Assembly: GCA_964437665.1 (NCBI GenBank)
Contig: CAYTHS010000003.1
Coordinates: 205-64,204 of the forward strand
Direction: 5' to 3'
DNA: 64,000 nt
DNA from: an uncultured Oscillospiraceae bacterium
GTDB taxonomy: Bacteria > Bacillota > Clostridia > Christensenellales > CAG-138
The notes under the pieces were generated by a model. The model had not been told where the DNA came from. It was given only the letters and a program-made list of their open reading frames with translations, and did not search any database. Shown piece after piece: positions 2,930 through 59,618 of the stretch (position 1 is the first letter of the stretch; each line of letters opens with the position of its first letter). The position numbers were made by a program, and so were the translations under genes.

Positions 2930-4846
2930 ATGAGCAGATTTATGGATGAAACGGCACTCTACTATTTCAATAGGGGTGTTTCGACAGCCGCATATCGGGA
3001 GCTTGGCTGTCACGAGGAAGTCGGCGAATACGGCGAGCGCGTTTTCCGCTTTGCGGTCTGGGCGCCCAACGCGGAGTTCGTCAGCGTGGTTGGCGAGTTT
3101 AACTTCTGGAATGTGGAGGCCGACCGGATGGAGCGCGCCGGAACGACCGGCGTGTGGGAGCTTTGCGTCGGCGTCGCGCACGAGGGCGATCTTTACAAGT
3201 ACGCCATCGGTACGAATACGGGCGAAGTGATCATGAAAGCGGACCCGTTCGCGTTTCGCTCCGAAGCGCACGGCACCGCTTCCGTCGTGGGCGGCATGCC
3301 TATGTTCGAATGGACCGACGAGGCTTATCTGGAGAGCCGCGGCGGTTCGTTTTCTTCTTACGATCAGCCGATGAGCATCTATGAGGTGCATCTCGGAAGT
3401 TGGAAGCAGGGGCTCGACTACCACGAACTGGCGGACGAACTGATCGAGTACGTCGCGGACATGGGCTACACGCACATCGAATTCATGCCGCTGACAGCCT
3501 ATCCGTACGACCCGAGCTGGGGCTATCAGGTGACGGGGTACTATGCCGCCACCGCCCGTTACGGCGAGCCGGAAGACCTGATGTATCTCGTCGACCGGGC
3601 GCACGAAATGGGAATCGGCGTAATCATGGACTGGGTGCCGGCGCATTTTACGCGGGACGCGCACGGCTTGCGTCTCTTCGACGGCACGCCTCTATTCGAG
3701 CACCCCGACCCGCGCCGCAGCGAGATGCCGCAGTGGGGTACGCTGCTGTTCAACTTCGAGCAGACCCAGGTGCAGTCGTTCCTGCTTTCTAGCGCGATGT
3801 ACTGGCTGCGCGAATTCCACTTCGACGGGCTTCGGGTGGACGCGGTGAGCTGTATGCTCTACCTTGATTTCGGAAAAAAGGACGGCGCGTGGCTTCCCAA
3901 TCGCTACGGCGGGCACGACAATCTCGATGCGGTCGCGTTTTTCAGAAAACTCAACTCGGCGGTGCATAAGCTCCACGGCGGGAAGATGCTCTTTGCCGAG
4001 GAAAGTTCGGCGTATCCTTATGTGACAAAGCCGGTTTCCGAGGACGGGCTGGGCTTTGCCTATAAGTGGAACATGGGGTGGATGAACGATGTGCTCGCCT
4101 ATATGGAAATGGACAGCATCTACCGCAAATACCACCATGACAAGCTCACTTTTTCGCTTTGCTATGCGTTTTCAGAGCATTATATCCTGCCTTTTTCACA
4201 CGACGAGGTCGTGCACGGCAAAAAAAGCCTGCTATCGAAAATGCCCGGCGATTACTGGCAGCAGTTTGCGCAGCTTCGGCTCCTGTATGCCTACCAGTTT
4301 GCGCATCCGGGTAAAAAACTTATGTTCATGGGGGACGAGTTCGGCCAGTTTATCGAGTGGAAGTTTGACGACTCGCTCGACTGGTTTTTGCTCGACTACC
4401 CCAAACACGCCGAGATGCAGCTCTTTGTGCACGATTTGAATCATTTTTACACGCAGGCGCCGCCGATGTTCGAGTGCGACGACAGCTGGGAGGGGTTCCA
4501 GTGGTGCGGTGTGGATGACAACATTCATTCGCTCCTGTCGTTTATGCGGATCGATCGGGACGGCAACGCGCTGCTTTGGACGTTTAATTTTACACCGATG
4601 CCCTGGTTGGACTATATGGTCGGCGTGCCGCGTTACGGGCTGTACACGGAAGTGTTCTCGACAGACGCGCCGTATTACGGCGGCACGGGCGACTATCCCA
4701 ACGCGCCTACCATGGCGGAAGCGGAACCTTACGGCGAGCACCCTTGCAGAATCCGTCTGCGACTGCCGCCGTTTGGCGCGGTGTGCTATGAACTGACGCC
4801 GGAACCCCTGCCGGAACCGACTGAAGAAATGGAGGGCGATGCATGA
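2930..4846 (+). CDS. glgB: 1,4-alpha-glucan branching enzyme
   Basis: GH13 branching-enzyme sequence ([29 protein letters not shown]). Start moved to ATG 2930 (MSRFMDE), in frame with ORF 2852. Confidence 0.93.
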
Positions 4847-6072
4847 AAAAAAGAATCGTTGCGATGCTGCTTGCCGGAGGGCAGGGAAGCCGTCTCGGCG
4901 TGCTTACCTCCAGCATGGCCAAGCCCGCCGTGCCGTTCGGGGGTAAATACCGCATTATTGATTTTCCTCTGAGCAACTGCGTTAATTCGGATATCGATAC
5001 CGTCGGCGTTTTGACACAGTATCGTCCGCTCGCGCTCAACAGCTACATCGGCACAGGCCAGCACTGGGACCTCGACCGGATTCACGGCGGGGTATTCGTG
5101 CTCCCGCCCTATGTTACGGCGGTTGATAACCGCTGGTACACGGGCACGGCCAACGCCATCTTTCAAAACCGCGAATTCGTGGACCAGTACGACCCGGATT
5201 ATGTGCTCATCCTTTCGGGCGACCACATCTATAAAATGGATTACGGCGAAATGCTGCGCTTCCATATCGAAAAGCAAGCGGCCGTTTCCATCGCCGTTCT
5301 GCCGGTGCCGCTCGAGGAGGCGAACCGCTTCGGCATCATGAATACCGACGAAGAGGACCGCATCGTTTCATTTGAGGAAAAACCCAAACAGCCCAAATCC
5401 AACAAGGCTTCCATGGGTATCTATATATTCAACTGGCCGGTGCTCAAAGAGTATATGAAACGCGACGATCACAACCCGGACTCGGGCAACGACTTCGGGC
5501 ATGACATCATCCCGGCCTGCATTGCGGGCGATCAGCCTGTATACGCCTATCCTTTCAGCGGATACTGGAAGGACGTCGGTACCATTCAAAGCCTTTGGGA
5601 AGCGAATATGGACATCATCTCCACGCCTCCCAAGCTCATACTCAACGATCCGCTCTGGAGGATTTACAGCCGCAACCCCATCATGCCGCCGCACGTCGTC
5701 GGGCAGGACGCTTCCATTACGCAGAGCCTTGTGACCGAGGGTTCGCGCGTGGAGGGCAAGGTGCACCACAGCGTACTGTTTTATAATGTGACCGTCGAAG
5801 AGGAGGCGGAGGTTTACGATTCCGTCATCTTCCCCGGCGCTGTGATCGAACGCGGCGCAAAGGTCTATCAGGCCATCGTGGGAGAAAACGCGCGTATCGG
5901 CGAGAACGCGACCGTCGGCGGACCGCTGCGGCACGGCGACCATGTGGACAACGCGCTTACCGGCAGCATCACGCTCGTCGGCAACGATTTCTGCGTATAC
6001 GCGGGCGCGTACCTGCCGCAGGGAACGGTGGCCACCGAGGACGAAAACGGAGGAAGATGCTATGACAAGTAA
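4843..6072 (+). CDS. glgC: glucose-1-phosphate adenylyltransferase catalytic subunit
   Basis: [10 protein letters not shown]-terminal motif followed by a left-handed beta-helix C-terminus. ATGA overlap with the glgB stop. Confidence 0.93.
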
Positions 6073-7186
6073 CGCGTTCGGACTCATCTACACCGGCGAA
6101 AACAACCCGCTGCTGCGCGATCTAGCGCTTTCGCGTTCGGTTGCGGCGGTGCCGTTCGGCGGGCGTTACCGCTGCATCGATTTCATCCTTTCGGACATGG
6201 TGAACAGCGGCGTGACCAGCGTTGGGCTGATCGCGCAGAAAAACTATCATTCGCTCATGGACCATCTCGGTGCGGGCAAGGAATGGGACCTGCACAGGAA
6301 GCGCGAGGGCCTTTTCGTGCTGCCTCCGTTCGTGACGAAGGAAAACACGGGGTTATACCGCGGCAGTATCGACGCGATTCGTTCCTGCCTCGGCTATGTG
6401 CGCCGCTGTCCCCAGCAATACGTCATCCTTACCGGCAGCCACACGATTTTCAACATGACGTTTGACGAGATGATCCAGCGCCATATCCAAACCCGCGCGA
6501 ACATCACGATGCTTTACAACGAGACCGAAACGAGCGCGCCGGAAGAGCAGAACCTGGACCTGCGGCTCATACTCGGCGGCGACGGCCGCGTGACCGAGAT
6601 GGAACTCAACCCCTTCACGCCGCGCTCGACGCACCAAAGCTGCGACGTAATGGTGCTCGACAAGCTTTTGCTTGAATACCTCGTCGAGGAAGCGTATTCT
6701 CACGGAGATTACGATTTCACGAGGGATATCCTGCTCAAAAAATGCGGCACGCTCAAGATCATGGGGTACCGTTACGACGGGTACGTCGCCCGGCTGGATT
6801 CCGTCAACGACTTTTTCAGACATAACCTTGCACTCCTCCAGCCGGAGGTGCGCGCCGACCTGTTTAACCCGGCGCACCCGATCTATACGAAAGTCAAGGA
6901 CGAGGTGAGCGCGCGTTACGGTGAAAACGCGAAGGTGAAAAACGCAATGCTTGCCGACGGCTGCGCGATCGAGGGCACCGTCGAAAACAGCATTCTCTTT
7001 CGCGGGGTTGCCGTCAAGAAAGGCGCGGTCGTCAAAAACAGTATTCTTATGCAGGCCGTGACCATCGGCGAAAACTGCCTGATGGACCACGTCATCCTGG
7101 ACAAAGGCGTGACCGTTCGCGACAACCGGACGCTCACTGGCTACGACGGGTTCCCGATCATCCTCAAAAAGGGAACGACGATCTGA
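6062..7186 (+). CDS. glgD: glucose-1-phosphate adenylyltransferase regulatory subunit GlgD
   Basis: GlgC paralogue lacking the GGxGxRL motif ([21 protein letters not shown]). Start is the in-frame ATG 6062; the ORF-track extension overlaps glgC. Confidence 0.88.
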
Positions 7187-27114: not shown

Positions 27115-27356
27115 AGGCCGCCGGGAAACCGGCGGCCTGAGACCGTCAAAAAACTTGTTTTTTGACGGGATAACCGCTCTTTGCCTCTCGTCCTTCGGAC
27201 TCCCGGGCGGCAAAGAGCACAGAGAAACCGCCCGTTCCGGGCGATCCGTTCCGCCGGATGAACCGGCGCAGCCGGAAAAGCGGGTTAAGGGCTGTGGCCC
27301 TTAACAATCCCAAGGACTTTTTTGACAGGCTGAGGCCGCCGGGAAACCGGCGGCCT
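27115..27356 (+). mobile_element. hairpin-rich repeat element copy A (core about 27138-27333), flanked by a 24-bp direct duplication of a terminator hairpin
   Basis: AGGCCGCCGGGAAACCGGCGGCCT is present at 27115-27138 and 27333-27356. The core is homologous to 59238-59433. Confidence 0.8.
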
Positions 27357-40724: not shown

Positions 40725-40801
40725 TGGTCGGGGTGACTGGATTTGAACCAGCGACCTTTTGGTCCCGAACCAAACGCGCTACCAAGCTGCGCTACACCCC
40801 G
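40725..40801 (-). tRNA. tRNA-Pro (anticodon CGG)
   Basis: Hand-folded cloverleaf: acceptor CGGGGTG/CACCCCG, anticodon loop TTCGGGA, T-loop TTCAAAT, encoded CCA; 77 nt. Confidence 0.9.
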
Positions 40802-40807
40802 AAAAAA

Positions 40808-40883
40808 TGGAGCCAATGTGGGGACTCGAACCCCAGACCTGCTGATTACGAATCAGCTGCTCTACCAACTGAGCTACATTGGC
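40808..40883 (-). tRNA. tRNA-Thr (anticodon CGU)
   Basis: Acceptor GCCAATG/CATTGGC, anticodon loop TTCGTAA, T-loop TTCGAGT, encoded CCA; 76 nt. Confidence 0.9.
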
Positions 40884-45561: not shown

Positions 45562-45695
45562 TCCCACCCAAGGGACACGTTCCCCGGGAATCCTCCGGTT
45601 TATTCGGGACACATGCAAAAAGTGGGTTCTTAGGGCTTGGTTCTAAGCGGCGGTTCGGAGGCAGAGCCTCCGAGCGCAGGGGTGATCCCCTGCCA
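45562..45695 (-). repeat. intergenic repeat family 3, copy in the parC 3' region
   Basis: Reverse complement aligns to 59474-59600 (GGAGGCTCyGCCTCC, GCTTAGA..CCTWAGAACCC, GGATTCCC..GTCCCTTGGG blocks). Confidence 0.65.
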
Positions 45696-59217: not shown

Positions 59218-59452
59218 AAAACGCCCAAGGGGGCGTTTGAGGCCGCCCCAAAACCAGTTTTTTGACGGGACAACCGTTCTTTGCCTCTCGTCCTTCGGAC
59301 TCCCGAGCGGCAAAGAACACAGAGAAATCGCCCGTTCCGGGCGATCCGTTGCGCCGGATAAACCGGCACAGCCGGAATATGCGGGTTAAGGGTTACGACC
59401 CTTAACAATCCCAGGGGCTTTTTTGACAGGCTGAAACGCCCAAGGGGGCGTT
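59218..59452 (+). mobile_element. hairpin-rich repeat element copy B (core about 59238-59433), flanked by a 19-bp direct duplication of the murD terminator hairpin
   Basis: AAACGCCCAAGGGGGCGTT is present at 59218-59236 and 59434-59452. The core is homologous to 27138-27333. Confidence 0.8.
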
Positions 59453-59473
59453 ATTTGTTTGGATATAAGCGGG

Positions 59474-59600
59474 GGCGCATTGGAGGCTCCGCCTCCAAAC
59501 CACGGCTTAGAGCCCGGACGGTCCTTAGAACCCGCTTTTTTGAAAAGAGGGATTCCCAAGGGATTCGTCCCTTGGGCGGGGTGCAGGGGAGCCCCTTGCA
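59474..59600 (+). repeat. intergenic repeat family 3, copy downstream of murD
   Basis: Aligns to the reverse complement of 45562-45695. Contains the perfect hairpin CCCAAGGGA-TTCG-TCCCTTGGG. Confidence 0.65.
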
Positions 59601-59618
59601 AAGCCCTTCAATTTCACT

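Follow-up and report, generated by a model that had tools for sequence, protein, structure and literature searches.

A 195-bp repeat of Clostridia is a miniature inverted-repeat transposable element that inserts at terminator hairpins and carries a copy of the hairpin on each flank

The DNA analysed here, referred to as the window, is a stretch of 64,000 nucleotides from contig CAYTHS010000003.1 of an uncultured Oscillospiraceae bacterium (GenBank assembly GCA_964437665.1). At two places in the window, convergent genes are separated by copies of a repeat of about 195 bp. The genes encode a ferritin-like and an AlaDh-like protein at the first copy (copy A) and a MurD-like and an isochorismatase-like protein at the second (copy B). 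A preceding reading of the sequence (the original prediction) had described the repeat as a candidate structured RNA or novel non-autonomous element and had not mentioned any duplication in its flanks. We found that both copies have the same GC-rich hairpin on either side, specific for the respective locus, and that the interval reported for copy A (27115-27356) consists exactly of duplication, element and duplication. The repeat is a MITE (miniature inverted-repeat transposable element) inserting at terminator hairpins, the whole hairpin being copied onto both flanks.

Duplicated terminator hairpins at the insertion sites

Copies A and B (Table 1) can be aligned from end to end with a single 1-nt indel and share 88.8% identity over 196 columns (blastn), close to the 90% without notable indels that had been estimated by eye. 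This resemblance is not due to chance. A core 21-mer occurs twice in the window (0.01 expected) and the end motif TTTTTTGACRGG six times (0.97 expected). Across all copies the element is 194-197 bp long. The folding energies of -85.4 kcal/mol (+ strand) and -88.6 kcal/mol (- strand) correspond to z-scores of -4.6 and -4.7, respectively, compared to shuffled sequences. Copies differ from each other by 1-nt indels, so that no open reading frame (ORF) is conserved among them, in line with the earlier statement that the repeat contains no credible ORF. That it belongs to no recognised Rfam family was confirmed as well: at gathering threshold, a search of the whole window against Rfam 15 detected only two adjacent tRNA genes (40728-40883, - strand) and nothing at the element, and at E<=10 the element gave only sub-threshold noise, the best being rteR with 22 bits compared to a cut-off of 72. 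The element had no blastn match in the plasmid and phage collections.

The two duplications flanking copy A are identical at 24 of 24 positions, those flanking copy B, with the sequence AAACGCCCAAGGGGGCGTT(T/A), at 19 of 20. An abutting direct duplication of 16-34 bp was present in 71 of the 103 copies having both flanks, and 50 of these duplications are perfect. Thereby, 60 distinct sequences are represented, the folding energies of which average -16 kcal/mol. The distinct perfect duplications (n=27) are 17-29 bp long with a median of 25 bp; 18 are palindromic from the first base to the last, five are symmetric with 1-2 unpaired nt per side, and four are asymmetric or not scorable. The boundaries of the duplications are symmetric about the dyad of the hairpin and lie at most 2 nt from the stem base, for any stem length or sequence. 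Flanks of the targets are A-rich upstream and T-rich downstream, as in bidirectional terminators, and no orientation bias of the insertions relative to the T tract was found. The insertion sites are the GC-rich stem-loops of intrinsic, mostly bidirectional intergenic terminators, irrespective of their sequence.

The base in front of the terminal GAG of the element is usually T and the base following the terminal CTG is usually A. Exceptions match the outer flank (A/A in locus L016, G/G in L095, C/C in L163), and CTGG together with a G before the left duplication was found in L098, L129 and L163. Because the junction T and A co-vary with the outer flanks, they are part of the duplication, and the element proper extends from GAG to CTG.

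Most copies without a clean duplication exhibit the same stems on both sides, with an altered loop or an indel. This applies e.g. to L001 (2989-3230) and L070, which represent the same locus: here the stems of the duplicated hairpins are identical and the loop is exactly reverse-complemented. Stems are also identical in L051/L092, L100/L143 and L071, where the loop was replaced or has an indel. These loop differences suggest hairpin-specific mutation during or after insertion. Different hairpins on the two sides were detected in L083, L096, L149, L124 and L094. The left flank of L124 (1-340) is the flank of window copy A; its right flank is another hairpin, followed by an inverted MITE-end fragment. 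For copies with two different hairpins, recombination of one copy with another at a different locus is the best explanation.

Table 1. Positions of the two elements, their flanking duplications and their internal features in the window
Feature	Position	Strand	Remark
Family-1 MITE copy A, GAG...CTG	27139..27332	+	194 bp; blastn reference for near-full copies
Left target-site duplication, copy A: AGGCCGCCGGGAAACCGGCGGCCT	27115..27138	+	terminator hairpin of the upstream ferritin-like gene
Right target-site duplication, copy A: AGGCCGCCGGGAAACCGGCGGCCT	27333..27356	+	precedes the original T-rich tail
Left terminal inverted repeat GAGACCGTCAAAAAAC	27139..27154	+	12/16 match to the reverse complement of the right end CAGCCTGTCAAAAAAG
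Left-end palindrome H0, CCGTCAAAAAAC-TT-GTTTTTTGACGG	27143..27168	+	12-bp end motif present in both arms, as inverted copies
Stem i	27176-27185 / 27209-27218	+	possible 3-bp extension; encloses the inner hairpin
Inner hairpin GTCC-TTC-GGAC	27190-27200	+	inside stem i
Stem ii, CGCCCG-TTC-CGGGCG	27229-27234 / 27238-27243	+	helix 4
Stem iii, CGCCGG-ATGAA-CCGGCG	27252-27257 / 27263-27268	+	helix 6
Stem iv, GTTAAGGGC-TGTG-GCCCTTAAC	27284-27292 / 27297-27305	+	helix 7
Right terminal inverted repeat CTTTTTTGACAGGCTG	27317..27332	+	contains the third copy of the 12-bp end motif
Family-1 MITE copy B	59239..59433	+	195 bp
Left target-site duplication, copy B: AAACGCCCAAGGGGGCGTTT	59219..59238	+	terminator hairpin after the MurD-like gene; terminator scan scores the - strand
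Right target-site duplication, copy B: AAACGCCCAAGGGGGCGTTA	59434..59453	+	terminator scan scores the + strand

Further copies, empty sites and sister families

The original prediction had proposed a search for copies in related genomes. Searching species-representative genomes for a core 20-mer revealed 38 loci. About 22 of the copies are situated in one Eubacteriales metagenome-assembled genome (MAG), the others in two complete 'Christensenellaceae' chromosomes and in four MAGs of uncultured Oscillospiraceae. When metagenomes were searched for the left-end palindrome, at least 120 loci were found on JGI and ENA contigs, the source samples of which are taken to be of the anaerobic-digester type. 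Among the matches listed there are 111 near-full copies with 79-98% identity to copy A, the search patterns having imposed an invariant 20-mer on the genome set and an invariant left palindrome on the metagenome set.

Two empty sites were detected. A contig of the Eubacteriales MAG (L035) is syntenic with the window from 18.8 to 28.5 kb and encodes proteins that are 81-97%, mostly 92-97%, identical. There, the end of the ferritin-like gene is followed by a single GGCCGCCGGGAAACCGGCGGCC and no element. The other case is a paralogous pair in L067, of which one member has the single hairpin CAGCCGCTTATGCAAAGATAAGCGGCTG and the other hairpin, element and hairpin. This pair lies in a tandem segmental duplication of 1.9 kb (3825-6100) including a gene for a 495-aa protein, with the MITE at one junction and the other junction empty; the N-terminus of the 495-aa protein has the look of a zinc ribbon. 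For copy B, an exact-protein look-up gave no empty site in the two other assemblies encoding the identical neighbour protein (L170 and L171), which both contain the insertion already, with the same 411-bp spacer. More than 100 dispersed loci, inverted repeats, locus-specific duplications and the two empty sites strongly support the earlier suggestion of a non-autonomous element. Being smaller than 500 bp and non-coding, with terminal inverted repeats, duplications, dispersed copies and presence/absence polymorphism, it has the properties of a MITE, the length of the duplication being atypical for this class.

The terminal inverted repeats are imperfect, comprise 16 bp and are conserved across 87 distinct copies; the inverted-repeat ends had been recognised in the original prediction, and both are given in Table 1. 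Each element contains three copies of a 12-bp end motif, TTTTTTGAC(G/A)GG. At the left end the inverted repeat GAGRCCGTCAAAAAAC is followed by two bases and the inverted copy GTTTTTTGACGG, and in the palindrome formed in this way (H0) 98% of the cells are paired in the 87 copies. The end pair of this family (family 1) can be written as GAGRCCGTCAAAAAAC ... TTTTTTGACAGGCTG.

Two sister families have cores unrelated to that of family 1, the same end architecture and duplicated hairpins on their flanks. Family 2 (about 205-220 bp; L022:2216-2437, + strand, and L004 at about 5938-6146, - strand) has the ends AGGCCATCGAAAAACC..GGTTTTTCGATGG ... TTTGTCGATAAACCGA, the first of them preceded by (C/T). 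Family 3 has the ends AGGCCGTCAAAAAACTTGTTTTTTGACGGGATAAGG ... GGTTCTTTGACAGGCTG, the left one as in family 1 and the right one of a similar kind to that of family 1, and is about 215 bp long, or about 360 bp with an internal insert (L049, L057, L072, L079, L086, L089, L114, L121, L167 and L168). In L022 and L004, elements of families 1 and 2 stand in tandem, resulting in the order hairpin, element, hairpin, element, hairpin. Since families 2 and 3 show hairpin duplication with unrelated cores, it is the ends, not the core, that go with mobility. The three hairpin copies of the L004 tandem differ in their loops, and the two hairpin copies of L168 differ by a pairing-preserving double change.

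Some family-1 copies are incomplete. L023 is truncated by a deletion from stem iii to the right duplication, L018 holds a fragment and L027 a short diverged copy. In chromosome OY764017.1 (L026:5199-5392) a copy located between tRNA genes has its right half replaced; its left palindrome differs in both arms (CCGACAAAAAGC/GCTTTTTGTCGG), and the tRNA 3' segment GAGCCCCGTTTCCC recurs on its right side. The left-end palindrome was also found alone, e.g. as AGGCCGTCAAAAAACCTGTTTTTTGACGGCCT, with neither core nor duplicated hairpin (L157:3764-3792, L117:1094-1120, L146:4324-4349, L127:1944-1974). These palindromes could be minimal two-end elements, footprints or remnants. A viral scan with the left-end palindrome revealed one ordinary family-1 copy (L169). 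Ten freshwater phage contigs (L039-L048) retrieved by a viral scan with the end motif contain an unrelated tandem promoter-like repeat exhibiting no similarity to the element.

Compensatory changes in the interior hairpins

All four hairpins described in the original prediction are present in copy A, and the two double changes reported between the copies were seen again: GCTC../..GAGC of stem i is replaced by GTTC../..GAAC, and GGGC/GCCC of stem iv by GGGT/ACCC. In a seven-helix model of the 87 distinct copies, 95.5% of the cells are paired. Double changes were counted in 19 pairs and 182 cells, these being cells and not independent events, compared to 12.4 pairs and 61.2 cells in column shuffles. 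None of 500 shuffles reached the observed values, and slid controls gave 8-27 cells. The covariation proposed earlier from two copies therefore withstood both kinds of control, and a 33-copy set gave the same picture.

Stem i (helix 2) comprises seven pairs with double changes, e.g. UA replaced by GC in 28 copies and CG by UA in 32, so that GCTCTTT/AAAGAGC occurs also as GCGTTTT/AAAACGC, GCTTTTT/AAAAAGC or GTTCTTT/AAAGAAC. The inner hairpin varies from GTCC/GGAC to GCCC/GGGC, ACCC/GGGT or GGCC/GGCC. Two pairs are doubly changed in stem ii (helix 4), one from GC to CG in seven copies and to AU in four, the other from CG to UA in one copy. Stem iii (helix 6) has three such pairs (CG to GC in 16 copies, to UA in four), with GCGGCGG/CCGCCGC or GCATCGG/CCGATGC in place of GCGCCGG/CCGGCGC. 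The innermost pair of stem iv (helix 7) changed from CG to UA in 20 copies. Furthermore, the unpaired blocks GATCCGTT, CAGCCGGAA and AACAATCCC are strongly conserved, which indicates that selection acts on more than pairing. Most likely, hairpins i-iv are held by selection for pairing as a cis-acting structure, which was either inherited from the non-coding ends of a parent insertion sequence or is needed for mobilisation. This is the weakest point of our interpretation.

The structured RNA that the original prediction had considered has partial support: the stem covariation is real, and the element matches no Rfam family. Nevertheless, nothing shows the element to be a free-standing RNA gene. 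The well-supported helices are local hairpins, which would be equivalent in either strand and in cruciform DNA, the wobble intermediates have no consistent strand polarity, the element contains no sigma-70-type promoter, and its core was never seen apart from the transposon ends; for these reasons covariation does not establish an RNA. On the + strand, A.C exceeds G.U among the uncompensated intermediates of stems i (33:7), iii (21:8) and iv (21:12), whereas the intermediates are G.U in the possible extension of stem i and in a possible closing helix. We therefore regard it as rather unlikely that the MITE also carries a functional structured RNA, i.e. a small RNA or stabiliser borne by the 3'-untranslated region (3'-UTR) or an RNA for its own mobilisation, with the covariation reflecting selection for RNA folding. 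Such an RNA would fit the strong covariation in five local helices, the highly conserved unpaired blocks and the folding of both strands at a z-score of about -4.6. It would also fit the possible stem-i extension, in which two conserved U.G pairs form on the + strand only, and the possible closing helix CCGTT/AACGG with 19 G-U and one A-U. In addition, the site between a hairpin lacking its T tract and a hairpin keeping it would ensure read-through transcription. However, sub-threshold noise was all that Rfam returned, the insertions are not biased in orientation towards the T tract, the cores that move in families 2 and 3 are unrelated, and the covariation is a tally of cells.

The compensatory changes might alternatively be a mutational by-product, if template switching at quasi-palindromes copied a change from one arm to the other without selection. 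Quasi-palindrome template-switch mutagenesis is an established process, and every covarying helix is a short local hairpin. The flanking host hairpins, too, mutate in a hairpin-specific manner, with the loop inverted in L001/L070 and replaced in L051/L092 and L100, and the duplication copies of L030 differ by one double, pairing-preserving change. On the whole, though, the differences between duplication copies comprise 16 in loop or flank, 16 single changes in the stem and only one double change, and they neither prove nor exclude template switching. The most double changes occur in stem i, the arms of which are 23 nt apart and enclose another hairpin, and the strong conservation of the unpaired blocks points to selection on the whole element. 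We thus consider a purely mutational origin of the covariation improbable.

Relation to known elements and proposed mode of transposition

IS1272 and TnSha1, which belong to the IS1182 family and occur in staphylococci, target terminator hairpins of any sequence and delete them, and the cruciform model for IS1272 predicts that attack on the 5' feet would duplicate the whole stem-loop (PMC5678879, PMC4923244). According to a review as cited in PMC5678879 and PMC4923244, some IS1182 members target palindromes. The MITE resembles IS1272 and TnSha1 in several respects: its targets are inverted repeats or terminator hairpins of variable length and without common sequence, often just 3' of genes, both insertion orientations occur, and the stem is cut at its feet. 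IS1272 variants likewise have the left inverted repeat in an additional copy. The choice of a stem-loop by its structure is apparent from the 60 distinct hairpins and the symmetry of 23 of the 27 perfect duplications. In contrast, IS1272 and TnSha1 delete the stem-loop wholly or partly without any duplication, IS1272 is an insertion sequence of 1.9 kb as compared to 194 non-coding bp in Clostridia, and an IS1182-type transposase was not found in the DNA fetched here. Because the element does not share the documented outcome of IS1272 transposition, we refrain from assigning it to the derivatives of IS1182. In every testable respect except for a known partner it is a MITE, and it chooses stem-loops by structure as the IS1272 class does.

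Like the bacterial MITEs Correia, RUP, Nezha, Chunjie and QMITEs (PMC10969869), the element is small, has inverted repeats and no ORF, is present in many intergenic copies with a stable predicted fold that recombine and nest, and depends on a transposase in trans. Duplications of the known bacterial MITEs are short, with a fixed length of 2-10 bp set by the enzyme, whereas the duplication described here has 17-34 bp (median about 25) and its length is set by the target stem-loop. The compensatory evolution in the interior is also unusually clear. No MITE duplicating a terminator hairpin is mentioned in the review PMC10969869, and a bacterial MITE with a whole terminator hairpin as its duplication was not found in the searchable literature.

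Extragenic palindromes and terminators serve as safe insertion sites for other elements, too. For IS1397/ISKpn1 and IS110/IS1111-family elements in REP sequences, and for class C group II introns behind terminators, the insertion point lies within or next to the hairpin and the duplication measures 0-4 bp, the chemistry being sequence- or RNA-guided recombination or retrohoming. The MITE, in contrast, duplicates the whole hairpin, and its targets share no sequence. Staggered joins tens of bp apart are a feature of the IS1202 family (duplications of 24-29 bp), of IS1634/IS1549 (long and variable) and of spacer or casposon integration by Cas1, where a partly palindromic repeat is duplicated. The unit duplicated during CRISPR adaptation is a palindromic repeat, in which inverted-repeat motifs position the two cuts. 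The enzyme or one specific repeat sequence determines the length in all these systems, and not the target stem-loop as is the case here. An assignment to REP/BIME palindromes was rejected. These are units of 20-40 bp that are themselves repeated, usually with a conserved head such as GTAG; here the repeated unit has 194 bp with inverted repeats, and the flanking hairpins differ at every locus. Descent from an IS200/IS605-derived palindrome-associated element was dismissed in view of the inverted repeats, the long duplications and the lack of a common flanking oligonucleotide, as elements of that type have subterminal hairpins adjacent to a fixed tetra- or pentanucleotide, and a described Rfam family or group II intron in view of the lack of an Rfam match.

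Lacking coding capacity, the element has to be mobilised in trans, by a transposase with its gene at another site. We consider it likely that this occurs by structure-directed, cruciform-type DDE transposition as modelled for IS1272. The transposase would read the stem-loop as a structure, most simply as an extruded cruciform that would bring both feet of the palindrome next to each other. An ordinary short stagger across the cruciform junction would then result in a duplication as long as the palindrome. If the 3' ends of the element were joined to the 5' feet, each hairpin would be left single-stranded, and gap repair would copy the hairpin on each side, corresponding to pathway b of the IS1272 model. 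At the far side of the element, each convergent gene retains a hairpin and the adjoining T tract of its own, so that termination should survive and the insertion would probably be nearly harmless. In either orientation, the element would then form a transcribed 3' extension. A TA-target junction model in the style of IS630 was dropped, because the duplications are A...T palindromes and not T...A.

Spread of the element via RNA or single-stranded DNA, either as a retroelement primed at its target and resembling short interspersed nuclear elements or as a palindrome-associated element moved by an HUH transposase of the IS200/IS605 type with hairpins of single-stranded DNA as its substrate, would account for the hairpin-rich element as a whole, for duplications of variable length as in target-primed retrotransposition, and for hairpin targets as used by several single-stranded DNA elements. 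We nevertheless judge it very unlikely. Terminal inverted repeats together with a 12-bp motif repeated three times are typical of transposase binding sites, the boundaries of the duplication lie symmetrically around the dyad, the insertions have no preferred orientation, and neither an A-rich tail nor an association with reverse transcriptase nor a match to a group II intron or another Rfam family was found. To our knowledge, IS200/IS605 elements have neither target-site duplications nor terminal inverted repeats.

Several findings weigh against transposition in the manner of IS1272. An autonomous copy or a transposase gene with these ends was not found in about 1 Mb of fetched DNA, so that we infer the transposase, its enzyme class, the DDE chemistry and the cruciform step. 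The documented outcome of IS1272 insertion is deletion of the stem-loop, and the duplication seen here fits the hypothetical pathway b. About 30% of the copies have no clean duplication and exhibit loop changes, indels or different hairpins per side; later mutation and recombination between copies would explain them, which is not proved. Such strong covariation in the interior is unexpected for a MITE that is a simple deletion derivative, and the core may thus have a function of its own. Finally, the one candidate end of an autonomous element may point to another enzyme family. At the end of contig JGI994J12354_10006088 (L104:10022-10176), the left-end palindrome is followed by family-3-like sequence, the promoter-like TTGAAA-17-TAAAAT and the start of an ORF, MSYDKKYRLRAISY, which is cut after 14 codons by the contig end. 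Judged by its sequence, L104 is possibly the left end of an autonomous insertion sequence, the short N-terminus of which presumably recalls a helix-turn-helix of the IS630/IS3 type more than IS1182. Blastn of this end against plasmids gave no match.

In the fetched loci, none of the partial copies inspected (L023, L026, L018 and L027) is autonomous, and no orphan right end is attached to an ORF. When duplicated hairpins of any kind with a spacing of up to 5 kb were scanned for, only MITE-sized spacings, an assembly artefact in L027 and the duplication in L067 were obtained. The artefact is a duplicated hairpin flanking a run of N (2283-2457), which we attribute to scaffolding, and the L067 case is the 1.9-kb segmental duplication described above and not an insertion sequence. 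Additional matches to the end motif were discarded as chance, and the clusters of multi-copy ORFs represent housekeeping genes, among them those for ABC transporters.

In a more far-reaching reading, anaerobic Clostridia would harbour a whole superfamily of such MITEs together with parent insertion sequences as yet unseen. Their transposase would respond to DNA shape instead of sequence, bind extruded cruciforms of terminators and join the element at the four-way junction, turning the whole stem-loop into a target-site duplication, and the conserved, covarying family-1 core would be a functional structured nucleic acid. Taken together we hold this to be doubtful. If true, the core would be an RNA in the 3'-UTR extension or a DNA cruciform array, required for mobilisation or neutralising the insertion, and would represent a new class of transposon-borne structured element.

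In the searchable literature, duplication of a whole stem-loop by a transposon is considered only hypothetically, in one branch of the IS1272 model. The present data document such duplication in more than 70 independent natural insertions from three element families, with symmetric cuts at the stem base, and make a structure-directed, cruciform-type choice of targets directly testable. An enzyme integrating at any terminator hairpin while termination is kept for both genes would be attractive as a sequence-independent tool for insertion at safe sites. In their hosts the elements duplicate terminators, add a structured 3' extension of about 220 nt to convergent genes, and drive rearrangements that are visible as copies with different hairpins per side. 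They also break metagenome assemblies, with many copies located at contig ends. To covariation screens the elements look like novel structured RNAs, which makes them a source of false or ambiguous calls of non-coding RNAs.

A second hairpin-rich repeat of about 130 bp is located just downstream of copy B (59472-59602). It has no Rfam match at gathering threshold. A partial copy is present in the window at 45617-45671, and copies with 68-77% identity were detected in L002, L033, L013, L018, L120, L156, L150 and L032. Several copies of this repeat adjoin family-1 copies.

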